A stretch of 64,000 nt of DNA from assembly GCA_043811375.1 (NCBI GenBank), contig JBDRNJ010000009.1, positions 49,382 through 113,381 of the forward strand, given 5' to 3'. Positions 24,918 to 29,926 of the stretch are shown piece after piece; position 1 is the first letter of the stretch; each line of letters begins with the position of its first letter. Origin of the DNA: a bacterium (GTDB lineage Bacteria > Zixibacteria > MSB-5A5 > GN15 > FEB-12). A model generated the notes under the pieces. The model worked only from the letters and a program-made list of their open reading frames with translations, searched no databases and was not told the DNA's origin. The position numbers and the translations under genes are program-made.

Positions 24918-25190
24918 TCAGGGACACTCGTGGCCCTCACCGACAGCCTGCTGACCATCGACTCCATCCAGTTTTGAGCGAATCTGTGCCTTAAGACTGT
25001 CCAGGCTGTCGGTCGGATGGCAGCTAGCCAATCCACGATCGATGAAATCCTGGATAGCGTTTTCTATCCGATACAGTTCAAAACAATGACGGCAGTGCTC
25101 CAAATGCTGCTTGATTTCCTTCTCGTCGATTTCAGAAACTTCTCTGTCAATCATCTCATACAGATGAATCATTACTTCCTGACAGTTCAT
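24918..25190 (-). CDS. Soluble zinc-binding anti-sigma factor (ZAS, RsrA/RshA-like)
   Basis: MNCQEV...HLEHCRHC (HxxxCxxC); ATGA overlap with the sigma gene; no TM. Confidence 0.88.
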   Translation of the reverse strand: MNCQEVMIHLYEMIDREVSEIDEKEIKQHLEHCRHCFELYRIENAIQDFIDRGLASCHPTDSLDSLKAQIRSKLDGVDGQQAVGEGHECP

Positions 25191-25774
25191 TTTGTGTTAT
25201 CCTTGATATATCCGTTAGAAACAGCGTAATCGAACAAAGCCTTCTGAAGAAGTTTCCGTCCCCGATGCAACCGCGACTTGACCGTGCCTAACTGCAGGTC
25301 CGTAATATCGGCTATCTCCTGGTAGGAAAACTCCTCAATAAAAGACAGAACAACGACCACACGAAAGTCCTCCGGCAGGTCTTCAATAGCCCGCTTGACA
25401 TCGTCGTCGAGTATCCGGGAGAATAGTTGTTGCTCGGGGTTGGGCACACTCTTTCCGGTGGCAAGCTGGCCGTACAGAAAATTGTCGTCCAACTCATCAA
25501 CGTTTACCACCATGGGTGAGCGCGACTTGGATCGGTACTCATTGATGAAGATATTAGTCATGATTTTGAACAACCAGGCTCGACAATTCGAACCCGGCTC
25601 AAACTTATCCCAGAATCGATAGGCTTTTACAAGTGCCTCCTGTACCAAATCTTCAGCATCGCTCTTATTTCGTGTCATCCGCAGGGCACTGCGATAGAGC
25701 GCCTCCATATGGGGCAGAGCTTCAACCTCAAAGCTCTGGCGCCGTCGAGCGGAATCAGCTTTCTGGTCGGCCAT
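25187..25774 (-). CDS. ECF sigma factor (SigH/SigR-like)
   Basis: DAEDLVQEA, AWLFKIMTNIFIN, FSYQEIADI and GTVKSRLHRGR. Confidence 0.92.
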   Translation of the reverse strand: MADQKADSARRRQSFEVEALPHMEALYRSALRMTRNKSDAEDLVQEALVKAYRFWDKFEPGSNCRAWLFKIMTNIFINEYRSKSRSPMVVNVDELDDNFLYGQLATGKSVPNPEQQLFSRILDDDVKRAIEDLPEDFRVVVVLSFIEEFSYQEIADITDLQLGTVKSRLHRGRKLLQKALFDYAVSNGYIKDNTK

Positions 25775-26065: not shown

Positions 26066-26099
26066 TAATAAAAGAGCGGAGAGAATCTCTCCGCTCTTT
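26066..26099 (-). terminator. Rho-independent terminator
   Basis: AAAGAGCGGAGAG-N3-CTCTCCGCTCTTT 13-bp stem ending in TTTTATTA on the minus strand. Confidence 0.85.
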
Positions 26100-26119
26100 G
26101 TAGAAATCGTGTTCAGAAA

Positions 26120-26647
26120 CTACACCGGCACGGTCGCTCTTTTACGACGCAACACAAACACTGCCGAGCCCAGCAGCAGCAGGGCCAGCAAGATCATACC
26201 GTAAGTAGTGAGGGAGGGAAGAGTAGTACAAATCACTTTCACAGTCAGAATTGCTTCAGTTCCGGCACCACCAGCGTCTCCGACATCAAATATCCACTCA
26301 CCCATATCAACGTTGCACGTGAAGGTAATCAAGCTATCGTCACCAGCAGGAATAATCAAGTTCGGTTTGAGGCCGTCCGGTGAAGAAGTGTTCACTACAG
26401 TGACATTTCCTGCAGAGTAGTTGGTGATAACAACATTCTCACTCAATCCAGGAGATTTGCGTATGATCACAGTACCAGCTACCTTCCAAGTTGGGTCACC
26501 TGGTGTCTGAATTTTGTACAGGCTGCCATCAAGCTGTACTTTTACACGTTTATCCTTATCGGGGCCTGACGCGTCCTGCGCGTACACCATCACTGCTGTA
26601 AGCATGAATGTCAGCAATATAAAAGATACTACTAATTTCCGAATCAT
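26120..26647 (-). CDS. Secreted protein with IPTL-CTERM-type C-terminal sorting signal
   Basis: Signal peptide MIRKLVVSFILL...VYA; C-terminal LPSLTTYGMILLALLLLGSAVFVLRRKR (motif, TM helix, basic tail); GGAGGAG RBS before ATG 26647. Confidence 0.8.
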   Translation of the reverse strand: MIRKLVVSFILLTFMLTAVMVYAQDASGPDKDKRVKVQLDGSLYKIQTPGDPTWKVAGTVIIRKSPGLSENVVITNYSAGNVTVVNTSSPDGLKPNLIIPAGDDSLITFTCNVDMGEWIFDVGDAGGAGTEAILTVKVICTTLPSLTTYGMILLALLLLGSAVFVLRRKRATVPV

Positions 26648-26698
26648 GGTCTCCTCCATGTTAGCATTATTTTGTTATTGTGAATAATCGGGCCTTTT

Positions 26699-27502
26699 TC
26701 AGGCCAGGGAGTATACACGTGGCGGACCGCGAATCTCCGACACCAGGTAGAACTTATCGGCGAAAAGCCTGGTAGTAAAGTGAAGACCCCAGGTTCTTTC
26801 ACCGACGGAATCGCTGAATTTCCGATTCTTCGCTCTACTCCATGCCTTTTCGACGGCTGCTATGATAAGCGTATTACACAGAACAATGATGAACGAGATA
26901 ATCAGAAAACCGAACAGCACCACCAGACCGTGAACAAAATGTCCGCTGAATTCGGCTTCACCAAGCACACTGTGGGCAATGCCCAGTTTGATGATTGCGG
27001 CCTCAAAAGCAACCCATAAGAGAGCCACAAAAATCGGACTAAAGCCCCATCGCCGACGTGTCCAGGTAATGGCGCCACCAAAAGCGGTAAACAGGACCGT
27101 ACCGCCAATCACTCTTCCGATAGCCGGAAGTGGCGACAGCACCAACGTATTAAGTTCTAATATCGACAGATAGAAAAAGCCCAGGAGAAATCCCAGGCGC
27201 ATTGCCTCTGTCACATTTGCCCGACGGACTCTCACCAGGAAGGGAATCAGTGCAAACAGGGATAGATACCACTGACCTGGAAAGAGTTGTGAGATCAGTA
27301 ACAGGAATGCGGATATGCCGGCAAAGAGCAGGCTTTCAGCCCATAGCAGATTTGCCGATGAACCCTCGCCCTGACTTATCAATGGTCGGTCAGTTGACGA
27401 CTGTCCAGCCGTCCGTGAACAATCGCTGCGTGTGGTACGTTTATTGATATCAACTGCGAGACAAACTCTGTCCGTCCTGGTGAAATCTCCCACTTGTCTC
27501 AA
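26699..27502 (-). CDS. Lnt N-terminal-like membrane protein without nitrilase domain, ending in RGPP
   Basis: About six TM helices with Lnt-like words (WYLSLFALIPFL, AMRLGFLLG, ALLWVAFE, FGFLIISFIIVLCNTLI), then a ~40-aa polar spacer and EIRGPP 6 residues before the stop. Start uncertain. Confidence 0.7.
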   Translation of the reverse strand: MRQVGDFTRTDRVCLAVDINKRTTRSDCSRTAGQSSTDRPLISQGEGSSANLLWAESLLFAGISAFLLLISQLFPGQWYLSLFALIPFLVRVRRANVTEAMRLGFLLGFFYLSILELNTLVLSPLPAIGRVIGGTVLFTAFGGAITWTRRRWGFSPIFVALLWVAFEAAIIKLGIAHSVLGEAEFSGHFVHGLVVLFGFLIISFIIVLCNTLIIAAVEKAWSRAKNRKFSDSVGERTWGLHFTTRLFADKFYLVSEIRGPPRVYSLA

Positions 27503-27642
27503 TACAGCCAGAAACGGCTGAATCCTCCATGTATGTCCACAATCGAACCCACTCTCATACCAACCCTATAACCGTCAGCAACACAGGCCTTGCATAATGG
27601 CTTCGTCTGGTAAGAGCCTGGTATTCTTTAATGTACTTATAT

Positions 27643-27671
27643 AATATAGCACCATTGATCTCTGTTGTCAA
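27643..27671 (-). promoter_or_regulatory. Sigma70-type promoter TTGACA-N17-TATATT
   Basis: Near-consensus motif in an AT-rich intergenic region, pointing into the Lnt-like gene. Confidence 0.75.
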
Positions 27672-27784: not shown

Positions 27785-29926
27785 CTATGAGTCGTCCGAG
27801 TCCTGGCCGTGCGCCCTGGCTGCGGAAATTACCCCCCTTACCTTGCGCACCTTGTCGATAATTCGATTCAAATGCGACAGGCTGGAGACTTCCACCGCGA
27901 ATCTGCCCACGGCGGTAGTGTCGCGGGCGTACATCTCGGCCGCCCGCACGTTGGTATCGGCGTCGGCTATCGCCTGGGTCAGGTCGCGTAACATATTCTT
28001 GCGATCCTCAACCACCATTTCGAGCTGAACCACAAAAGCCTGTCCCTTGGGCGTATCCCAGCTAACTTCAATTTTCCGCTCAGGCGACTTGGTCTGCAGA
28101 TCAAGCGCCACCTGACAGTCGTCTCGGTGAACGGTGACACCTCTCCCCCGGGTTATGAAGCCGATGATATCCTCGCCGGGAATCGGCTGGCAACATCCGG
28201 CATAACGGAACATCATATCACCCATGCCGTGCACCTTGATCCCCTTGGTGCGCCGGATGCGATCCATTACTTTGCTGACCAGACCGGTGACCGGTTCTTC
28301 ATCCACGGGAGCTATCAGCGTCACCAGGGAACGCACCGAGAGATCACCGTTACCGATACCGGCCAAGAGATCCTCCACCGACTTTTTGTTAAGCTGTTCG
28401 GCGTACCCCTGCAGGATGTCTTCACCGGGCAGTTTGAGGTGTTTCACACGAAGCTTGCGCTCAATAATTTCCCGACCCAAAGCCACCGCCTGCTCAAACC
28501 CGGACTGCTTGAGCCAGCGCCGAATCCTGGCTCGCGCGGCCGACGTTCTGACCAGTTTCAACCAGTCGTGTGAGGGCGTGCGGTTGGCATTGGTTATGAT
28601 TTCCACAGTGTCACCGGTGCGGAGTTCGGACGACAGCGGCTGCAACCGGTTGTTGATACGGGCTCCGGCACAGTGGATACCTACCTCGGTGTGAATCTGA
28701 AAGGCAAAATCAAGGGGGGTCGAGCCTTTGGGCAGATGGATCAATTTGGCATGGGGCGTAAAAACGAAGATGTCTTCGGAATACAGATCGATCTTGAGGT
28801 ATTCCAGAAAATCGGACGGATTGGTCATATCCTTCTGCCACTCCAGGACATCGCGCAGCCAGACCATCTGACGATCCGACTTGTCCATCTGCTGCCGGCC
28901 TTCCTTGTAGAGCCAGTGAGCGGCAATGCCGTTCTCGGCGATATTATGCATTTCGTGGGTTCTGATCTGTATTTCAACCATTCGATTACGGGGACCAAGA
29001 ACGGTAGTGTGCAACGATCGGTAGCCGTTAGGTTTGGGATTGGCTATGTGATCATGAAAACGATCAGCTACCGGTTTCCACATGGCGTGCAGAATGCCCA
29101 TAGTGTGATAACACTCGCCCTCGGTCCCTACAATAATCCGAAAAGCAATCAGATCGTAAATCTCCTCGAAGGGAACATTGCGAACCCTTATTTTGCGGTA
29201 GACGGAATCCAAATGCTTGGCCCGACCATAGACATCGGCCTTAATACCGCTCTCGCCCAGCGTCTCCCGGATGGGCTGCACCAATTCCTTGATGTACTCC
29301 TCCCGTTCCTCCCTCTTTTCACGAATGAGTCTGGTCAGATCGGCAAACACATCCGGCTCCAGGTACTTCAGCGACAGGTCCTCCAGTTCCATCTTGATTC
29401 GATTGAGACCGAACCTGTGTGCCAGCGGGCAGTATACATCCCGGGTTTCGTTGGCAATACGGGTTCGTTTTTCGTGTGGAAGATGTTCCAGGGTTCGCAT
29501 GTTATGCAGGCGGTCGGCCAGTTTTATCAGAATCACCCGGATATCCCGGGCCATGGTCAACAGCATTTTACGGAAGTATTCGGCCTGCTGTTCCTCACGC
29601 GAGGAGAATTGCACCGTTCCCAATTTGGTGACTCCGTCCACCAGATCGGTAATCTCATCCCCGAACTGCTCACGCACACCTTCCAGTATCATCGGTGTAT
29701 CCTCGACCACATCGTGTATCAGCCCGGCCGCGATGGTAGTGGAATCCATGTGCTGTTCGGCCAGGACAAAAGCTACCTCGAGACAGTGTTCGATAAAAGG
29801 TTCCCCTGACTGGCGTTTCTGGCCGGCATGGGCGCGGTCGGAAAACTCGTAGGCACGGCGGATCAAAGGAATATCGACGTTGGCGTTGTACGATTCGATG
29901 CGTATGATAAACTCAGCCAGGTTCAT
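27785..29926 (-). CDS. rel: Bifunctional (p)ppGpp synthetase/hydrolase RelA/SpoT
   Basis: HDVVED, IKLADRLHNMRTL, PKPNGYRSLHT, EIQIRT, TGS (TPLDFAFQIHT), CCQPIPG and ACT. ATG 29926 overlaps the upstream stop. Confidence 0.96.
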   Translation of the reverse strand: MNLAEFIIRIESYNANVDIPLIRRAYEFSDRAHAGQKRQSGEPFIEHCLEVAFVLAEQHMDSTTIAAGLIHDVVEDTPMILEGVREQFGDEITDLVDGVTKLGTVQFSSREEQQAEYFRKMLLTMARDIRVILIKLADRLHNMRTLEHLPHEKRTRIANETRDVYCPLAHRFGLNRIKMELEDLSLKYLEPDVFADLTRLIREKREEREEYIKELVQPIRETLGESGIKADVYGRAKHLDSVYRKIRVRNVPFEEIYDLIAFRIIVGTEGECYHTMGILHAMWKPVADRFHDHIANPKPNGYRSLHTTVLGPRNRMVEIQIRTHEMHNIAENGIAAHWLYKEGRQQMDKSDRQMVWLRDVLEWQKDMTNPSDFLEYLKIDLYSEDIFVFTPHAKLIHLPKGSTPLDFAFQIHTEVGIHCAGARINNRLQPLSSELRTGDTVEIITNANRTPSHDWLKLVRTSAARARIRRWLKQSGFEQAVALGREIIERKLRVKHLKLPGEDILQGYAEQLNKKSVEDLLAGIGNGDLSVRSLVTLIAPVDEEPVTGLVSKVMDRIRRTKGIKVHGMGDMMFRYAGCCQPIPGEDIIGFITRGRGVTVHRDDCQVALDLQTKSPERKIEVSWDTPKGQAFVVQLEMVVEDRKNMLRDLTQAIADADTNVRAAEMYARDTTAVGRFAVEVSSLSHLNRIIDKVRKVRGVISAARAHGQDSDDS

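Follow-up and report, generated by a model that had tools for sequence, protein, structure and literature searches.

The window analyzed here is a 64,000-nucleotide (nt) stretch of DNA from a Zixibacteria bacterium (assembly GCA_043811375.1, contig JBDRNJ010000009.1, positions 49,382 to 113,381). On its minus strand lies a two-gene unit (Table 1), with a RelA/SpoT-type gene (ending at 27785) on one side and a gene pair for an extracytoplasmic function (ECF) sigma factor and its anti-sigma factor on the other. Gene 1, referred to as the leader, encodes a membrane domain related to that of Lnt, a polar spacer and, shortly before its stop codon, an RGPP motif. Gene 2, the cargo gene, encodes a secreted protein with an IPTL-CTERM-like tail, as is typical for substrates of exosortase H (XrtH). 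Directly established are the anatomy of this unit, the fixed length of the spacer, the one-operon layout, the pairing with IPTL-CTERM-type genes and the co-occurrence with XrtH. The Lnt-leader family is a real, conserved and so far undescribed variant of the RAPP/RGPP class of arrest leaders, and it appears highly probable that gene 1 is an arrest leader acting in cis. This is the core of an original prediction made from the letters of the window, which regarded gene 1 as an Lnt domain reused as arrest leader in front of an exosortase-type protein. All comparative checks agree with this core, whereas the lipid or force input proposed for it is weakened and its proposed output through a CTCCC element did not hold.

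Table 1. Features of the leader-cargo unit, in positions of the window.
Feature	Position	Strand	Basis or remark
Gene 1 (leader), longest open frame, 267 amino acids (aa)	26699..27502	-	Open reading frame (ORF); start codon candidates TTG/GTG/TTG
Membrane domain of six helices, homologous to H1-H6 of Lnt, predicted N-in/C-in	26858..27349	-	Pfam LNT_N
Polar spacer, fixed length, collinear with Lnt H7 but not hydrophobic	26732..26857	-	Alignment and hydropathy
RGPP arrest-type motif, codons CGC GGT CCG CCA	26720..26731	-	Six codons, then stop
Gene 2 (cargo), 175-aa secreted protein, probable beta-sandwich, sorting tail	26120..26647	-	ATG 26647
Gene 2 signal peptide, hydrophobic signal-like N-terminus	about 26647-26579	-	Sequence
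IPTL-CTERM-like tail, LPSLTTYG, transmembrane helix and RRKR	26123..26221	-	Predicted exosortase H substrate
Shine-Dalgarno (SD) sequence of gene 2, GGAGGAG	26651..26657	-	Sequence
5-bp hairpin over leader stop codon, possible pause site	26691..26705	-	Centroid structure
Sigma70-type promoter-like site, -35 TTGACA, 17 nt, extended -10 TG-n-TATATT	27643..27671	-	Heads the unit
Intrinsic terminator-like hairpin and U tail	26066..26099	-	Closes the unit; 13 pairs, 7 G-C

Origin of the leader

The Pfam family LNT_N matches gene 1 across the entire 159 positions of its model and above its cut-off (E 1.7e-9), and the CN_hydrolase and nitrilase families of Pfam gave no match. With the model for full-length Lnt (TIGR00546) the protein, which ends after the motif, reached 19.9 bits, the cut-off being 132.9. 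The AlphaFold model of gene 1 (predicted local distance difference test score, pLDDT, 86) consists of six long helices. Its top fold match is the membrane domain of Lnt (8aq2; Z 13.6, root-mean-square deviation 3.9, 160 aligned residues), and the next matches are S-components of energy-coupling factor (ECF) transporters with Z scores of 12.2 and below (range 8-12); helical bundles can reach such Z scores through their arrangement alone. No match at E ≤ 0.001 was obtained by Foldseek with this model, though Lnt entries headed the ranking, and a sequence search of the PDB returned no relevant entry. The predicted set of about six Lnt-like transmembrane (TM) helices without a nitrilase domain is thus borne out by the Pfam hit as well as by the model, with Lnt as best structural match. 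Like Lnt (TIGR00546; PF20154 and PF00795), the leader has helices H1-H6, both in sequence and in fold; unlike Lnt, it lacks the nitrilase domain and the Glu-Lys-Cys triad, carries a polar spacer in the place of H7 and shows degenerate pocket loops.

The loops of the leader follow the positive-inside pattern, the last helix being predicted as N-out/C-in. Conserved positions sit in helices 1, 2, 5 and 6 and in the cytoplasmic loop between helices 4 and 5, and Pro, Trp, Gly and Asn residues within the membrane are invariant. Conserved Cys or His residues are absent from the leader family, and DUF2946 gave no hit with gene 1 at E ≤ 1. Crude ratios of non-synonymous to synonymous substitution rates (dN/dS) among close pairs amount to about 0.05-0.25 for the helical domain and are higher for the spacer. 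Judged from these sequence comparisons, purifying selection acts on the six helices of the domain as a whole.

In view of its ancestry, the domain might be imagined to bind a phospholipid or an XrtH-attached lipid anchor, the occupancy of which would release or stabilize the stall. The Lnt membrane domain helps to form the pocket for the acyl chains of phosphatidylethanolamine (PE) and lipoprotein (PMC10313180), archaeosortase processing requires enzymes of the PE pathway and adds a lipid (PMC7157517), and the resemblance to the ECF S-components is a resemblance to ligand-binding proteins. However, conservation within the domain is lowest in the H3-H4 loop and in the H5-H6 linker (0.26 and 0.31, respectively, versus 0.40-0.62 for the helices), the parts that make up an arm and the floor of the Lnt pocket (PMC10313180). 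Moreover, the leaders lack the FPW motif that true Lnt has in its linker, and lipid attachment by XrtH was not found in the literature searched. As the pocket loops are the least conserved parts, the lipid input is weakened and a lipid sensor is considered very unlikely.

Conservation of motif and spacer

A profile search of a 50%-identity library yielded 662 hits at E ≤ 0.001, of which 126 reached E ≤ 1e-30, with the weak hits possibly including true Lnt. Relatives bearing names are for the most part labelled as Zixibacteria or uncultured Ignavibacteria. The comparison of loci drew on 60 stretches surrounding the stronger ones among about 110 hits listed, and on additional loci. A scan of the genome contigs with a single leader protein as query found nothing. 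The C-terminal motif is strongly conserved: 152 of the 166 proteins of the leader family end with RxPP (RAPP 86, RGPP 56, RSPP 8, RDPP 2), the other 14 being mostly fragments, and among the close homologues of gene 1 an R[AG]PP end is found in 18 of 19, the remaining one being cut short. In gene 1 itself, the predicted EIRGPP end with a stop codon six codons on can be read directly in the ORF. RGPP has 0 occurrences in the ORFs of at least 300 aa of this genome, and it is reported to be the most excluded tetrapeptide in many phyla (PMC12992588). The gene 1 product, with less than 300 aa, R[AG]PP near the C-terminus and a TM segment located over 30 residues ahead of the motif, has the sequence features by which the RAPP/RGPP class is recognized, and so has its genomic setting, the leader being the first gene of a unit whose co-oriented downstream gene is of a consistent class.

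Even more distinctive is the spacer between domain and motif. Counted from the Asn in TM6 to the Arg of the motif, it comprises 48 residues in 56 of 61 loci; one further locus has 49, and four have no Asn nearby. Database proteins (110 of 129) and metagenome leaders (22 of 25) show the same distance. Helix 6 ends about 40 residues from the motif Arg. This length is fixed while the conservation of the spacer sequence is as low as 0.22. None of 138 leaders exceeds a maximum 19-residue hydropathy of 1.6 in this segment, in contrast to five of five true Lnt proteins (1.85-2.26). The polar spacer of about 40 aa, the constancy of which the original prediction had proposed to check, is a family trait.

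Within the same loci, CCC codons are rare at the two prolines of the motif (4/61 and 1/61) compared with other Pro-Pro pairs (63/288 and 70/288), the p values of 0.004 and 6e-6 being overstated as the loci are kin. Slippage occurs at stalled CCC codons. The depletion at both prolines can thus be taken as an indirect sign of ribosome dwelling.

For CruR, a toeprint places the first Pro in the P site when the ribosome stalls (PMC12992588), and by analogy gene 1 is predicted to stall with its first Pro in the P site and its second in the A site. With this register, the end of helix 6 would be located about 42-45 residues from the peptidyl transferase center (PTC). Helices stop pulling once their C-terminal end is separated from the PTC by about 45 residues (PMC7886326), so that the stall would occur with the domain just fully inserted. 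For N-out/C-in helices, the spacing has been described as critical (PMC10987492).

The narrow spacer resembles that of YidC monitors (PMC10987492; the median for MifM is 54), and together with the N-out/C-in prediction for the last helix it might suggest a SecM/MifM-type monitor of insertion force, which would gauge Sec/YidC capacity via SD occlusion relieved by the stalled ribosome. Such a monitor fits less well, as insertion of the last helix would be nearly complete when the ribosome stalls and the helix hence beyond its pulling window. In addition, the downstream gene is a cargo gene, not sec or yidC, and making more cargo when insertion fails would seem counter-productive. The RNA folding that such a monitor needs is considered further below.

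Cargo genes and exosortase H

Among the non-redundant RxPP leaders, a gene with a CTERM tail is directly next in 71 of 74 cases, so that the type of downstream gene is conserved. Of the three exceptions, one is a run of N, another is a cargo that ends in a dockerin-like part and has CTERM genes behind it, and the last is unclear. Three further hits in this tally were without motif, two of them being truncated at contig ends and the third frameshifted; one long hit that was a true Lnt was left out. As the cargo-tail profile was built from the very loci that were counted, the metagenome set is the fairer test: there, the motif is present in 25 of 28 loci, and 21 of these 25 have a CTERM gene next. 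For three of the four metagenome leaders without such a neighbor, less than 460 nt of contig remained. The contigs of the metagenome set overlap in part with the genome set.

The cargo proteins themselves are highly diverse (59 proteins in 28 BLAST clusters, 108-944 aa), with the tail being their sole common part. Its family consensus is [IV]P[ST]L[TS]xWG...RRR; 27 of 58 cargo tails match TIGR04174 at E ≤ 0.01, and four of six whole proteins tested score above its cut-off. For gene 2, the proposed signal-like segment is present and the IPTL-CTERM-like tail holds by resemblance, but it stays just under the curated cut-off (19 bits for the tail and 14.6 bits for the whole protein versus 20.5). 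Gene 2 has five homologues, at 57-87%. Its structural neighbors are Ig-like, as deduced from a low-confidence Atlas model, and a single-sequence model (pLDDT 34) was unusable. Given its tail, the gene 2 product would be cleaved and anchored at the cell surface by exosortase H. In Methylomirabilis lanthanidiphila, the proven S-layer protein, which is highly transcribed, is of the IPTL-CTERM type (PMC8671808), and by analogy it is plausible that the led cargo is the major surface or S-layer-type protein of the cell.

In line with this assignment, the search for XrtH in this genome was successful (contig C87; TIGR04177 93.7 bits, cut-off 86). Cys, Arg and His are invariant across 29 aligned XrtH proteins. 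Directly after XrtH lies a gene (positions 1005-1487 of stretch L098 from contig C87) for a 160-aa membrane protein without NCBIfam match above E 0.07, a possible exosortase partner. Across 201 genomes of the phylum, XrtH is present in 64 of 65 leader genomes, versus 21 of 136 leader-free genomes; four genomes whose only hit is a full-length Lnt were counted as leader-free, and a more sensitive profile shifted G163 and G064 into the leader set and G047 out of it.

Up to seven leaders are found per genome, each ahead of a cargo gene, and three loci (L055, L077 and L080) show leader-cargo units in tandem and arrays in which a leader heads several CTERM genes. Several copies that each precede their own cargo, tandem units included, argue for an action in cis. 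The genome under study holds a second unit (contig C24, 77688-79634), in which a 237-aa LNT_N protein that ends with RRAPP and is 29% identical to gene 1 is followed by a 360-aa secreted protein with the same type of tail.

It could be objected that gene 1 is a truncated lnt remnant or an ordinary exosortase membrane subunit acting in trans, with an incidental RGPP. Besides the Lnt homology, the presence of XrtH within the fetched stretch of 16 out of 59 leader loci would fit such a role. Yet an intact lnt, which the original prediction had suggested to look for, exists elsewhere in the same genome (263 bits), the domain is under purifying selection, several copies per genome stand before cargo genes and the motif persists in 152 of 166 family proteins despite the reported exclusion of RGPP in many phyla. 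No longer fused forms of the leader were found, which is weak evidence. Such a role is consequently regarded as extremely unlikely. Since the homologues are not full-length Lnt proteins and keep the motif, the special case of a truncated pseudogene can be discarded, also on account of the intact lnt and the purifying selection. A function of the leader as an XrtH decoy with a CTERM look-alike was likewise rejected (hhalign probability 1.8%; best hidden Markov model score 7.7 bits, none above 10 in 138 leaders).

Layout of the unit

Scoring of sites and hairpins recovered both the promoter and the terminator by which the unit had been proposed to be bounded. The promoter-like site (27671-27643) matches 11 of 12 positions plus the TG extension and is the best of seven sites between 25000 and 29000 (shuffles 3.4). 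The terminator hairpin proper spans 26099-26071 and is followed by the U tail. In related loci, sigma70-like sites with at least 10 of 12 matches occur upstream of the leader in 22 of 56 cases (promoter-to-helix-1 distance 184-455 nt in 32 loci), inside the cargo gene in 3 of 58 and upstream of the cargo gene in just 1 of 58, which speaks against a cargo gene driven by its own promoter. A terminator-like site between leader and cargo was also found in just 1 of 58 loci, and an intrinsic attenuator separating the two genes was rejected on this basis. The promoter before the leader and not before the cargo, in combination with the multiple leader copies and tandem units, points to one transcript and to an action in cis.

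For the start of gene 1 there are three candidates (TTG 27502, GTG 27493, TTG 27382), none of them with a close SD; the database copy of the protein begins at the GTG (264 aa). A GGAGGA precedes TTG 27502 by about 21 nt (region 27502-27529), a 5-bp hairpin lying between the two, and a short out-of-frame ORF (27450-27542) crosses the start region. Initiation of the leader may be weak or structure-assisted. Downstream of the terminator, the ECF sigma factor and its zinc-finger anti-sigma factor occupy 24918-25774.

Relation to known arrest leaders

RAPP/RGPP leaders sit upstream of diverse genes, and all seven of seven RAPP/RGPP proteins tested from S. lividans arrested, several of them with four TM helices (PMC12992588). 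The four-TM proteins SLIV_18480, 27375, 33595 and 33605 (PMC12992588) are, like gene 1, membrane-targeted and shorter than 300 aa, and the S. lividans leaders share with it an R[AG]PP that precedes the stop by a few codons and the position as first gene of a unit (PMC12992588). SecM, MifM, VemP, ApcA, ApdA and ApdP (PMC10987492) also carry a membrane-targeting element about one tunnel length before the arrest site, which is of the RAPP type as in the leader. The Lnt leader differs from these by six helices instead of one, by a downstream gene that is not sec or yidC and by an SD hairpin that is not conserved family-wide, although some loci may form it. Also related are CruR from Bordetella pertussis (DUF2946; PMC9426467) and CutF from Rhodobacter capsulatus (10.1101/2025.02.05.636593), arrest leaders in which the sensor part keeps a conserved distance to a Pro-rich/RAPP motif, the intergenic region is long and the target has no relation to Sec/YidC. 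CruR works via Rho and CutF via an SD stem-loop (PMC9426467; 10.1101/2025.02.05.636593). Both are small proteins that sense through a CXXC copper site, as opposed to the six-helix Lnt-like domain and the exosortase cargo target of the leader.

No description of the Lnt-leader/cargo pairing was found in the literature on RGPP/RAPP arrest peptides, IPTL-CTERM, exosortase/XrtH and Lnt, and the claim of the original prediction to this effect stands for the paper texts searched. It does not stand for the source data of PMC12992588, in which six rows pair RAPP "hypothetical proteins", as upstream ORFs, with IPTL-CTERM genes without comment. In the available text of that paper the terms "lnt", "acyltransferase" and "exosortase" are absent, IPTL-CTERM is outside its 30 enriched RAPP groups, and the Lnt origin, the 48-residue ruler and the XrtH link are not described there; its RGPP list may name the downstream group. 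The family descriptions of IPTL-CTERM and exosortase H (TIGR04174, TIGR04177) cover the type of cargo tail and the XrtH found in leader genomes, often adjacent.

Proposed mechanism

With moderate confidence, which takes in alternative output steps, we favor a cis-acting arrest leader through which the sorting pathway feeds back on an exosortase H cargo gene. In a first step, the ribosome would stall at the Pro-Pro codons when the six helices are already inserted, with a taut tether on which ordinary insertion no longer pulls. In a second step, this stall would be the default state and keep the cargo gene on, as in all characterized members of the class, probably by sustaining transcription against Rho in a CruR-like manner, with an unmasking of the SD confined to some loci. 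In a third step, a change in the membrane plane that is connected with the XrtH pathway, such as the piling up of precursors still unprocessed or of tails already cleaved, which all cargo have in common, would move or bind the helical bundle, whereby the chain would be pulled, the stall released and the cargo gene turned down. Feedback from the XrtH pathway is favored because the cargo proteins share only their tail and because inducing cargo after failed insertion would hardly make sense; the signal would hence come from the XrtH pathway in the membrane plane.

For the second step, Rho is present, and CruR acts via Rho with similarly long intergenic regions (PMC9426467). The motif and the cargo start are separated by about 58 to 354 nt across loci. 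Pairing between CTCCC (26711-26707) and the SD of gene 2 (26657-26651) had been proposed instead; the positions are correct, but this pairing appears in no computed fold. CTCCC pairs upstream or with the intergenic region and was dismissed as an anti-SD element. The SD forms a local hairpin with the ATG that it serves; if upstream sequence is left out, it pairs with the RGPP-Arg-Val codons instead.

Folding with and without the footprint of a stalled ribosome gave a mixed picture. With 60 nt of upstream context, the opening energy of the ribosome-binding site (RBS) shifts by ≤1 kcal/mol in 41 of 58 loci, while 11 loci gain and six lose (-0.6 kcal/mol in this window; three loci with mis-picked starts were left out). 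If the upstream context is omitted, the gain exceeds 2 kcal/mol in 15 of 52 loci, and in this window the opening cost falls by 1.8 kcal/mol through the pairing between RGPP codons and RBS. These gains from the narrow folding window would suit the insertion-force monitor introduced above, as would its YidC-like spacer. Against shuffled footprints, however, the gain is no larger (Wilcoxon p 0.48, 52 loci), and the motif region pairs with its own RBS no better than with those of others (permutation p 0.125). The occlusion of the SD is thus family-wide no better than in the controls, from which it follows that SD unmasking is possible in some loci and is not a conserved family switch. Taken with the position of helix 6 and the nature of the downstream gene, an insertion-force monitor is quite unlikely.

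A different idea is that of an unregulated tether, in which a constitutive stall would hold the mRNA at the translocon near XrtH and shield it, with no signal being sensed. It would accommodate the fixed spacer that leaves the domain fully inserted, the action in cis, the variable distance between motif and cargo start and the fact that a conserved regulatory RNA element was not found. On the other hand, a single helix would suffice for tethering, yet a six-helix domain with invariant intramembrane residues is maintained by purifying selection, and the characterized RAPP-type leaders are regulatory. On balance, a mere tether appears unlikely.

Several observations weigh against the feedback from the sorting pathway, starting with the two control comparisons of the footprint folds. 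The intergenic region exhibits no bias of C over G (C>G in 27 of 58 loci), and the C-over-G bins inside the leader track its codon content; as no conserved output element was found, the Rho step rests on analogy. RAPP by itself is insufficient for arrest if a suitable upstream context is missing (PMC12992588). The co-occurrence with XrtH can be accounted for by the cargo needing XrtH and does not imply that XrtH provides the signal, and about 19-21 genomes have XrtH and no leader. Only some CTERM genes carry a leader, and the family descriptions of IPTL-CTERM and exosortase H include no leader gene: in this genome a third, weaker CTERM-type gene (contig C29, 16866-17402; VPSHSDWSL...RRY) has no leader upstream, and four genomes (G080, G129, G159 and G185) show 28-33 CTERM matches and one leader each; in these, the leader may precede the gene of the main surface protein. 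Finally, at four loci (L061, L157, L160 and L165) the leader is split by a frameshift with the motif-bearing half being intact, assembly error and decay not being told apart.

Implications

The most specific form of this proposal, a membrane-embedded quality-control sensor in which the ribosome-tethered Lnt helices H1-H6 read the load on exosortase H and set the level of a major, S-layer-type and highly variable surface protein, is put forward tentatively. Which processes pull on RAPP/RGPP leaders beyond the Sec/YidC and copper monitors is an open question (Fujiwara 2025), for which the Lnt-leader family offers an unusually clean case, as its ancestry is known, its 48-residue ruler is near-invariant and its target class is defined by a sorting tail. 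If the proposal is true, gene 1 would be the first monitoring substrate for a sortase-like pathway and an example of an enzyme domain recycled as a regulator. It would also indicate which surface protein dominates in an uncultured phylum, and nascent-chain feedback would extend to the biogenesis of exosortase-dependent surface proteins.

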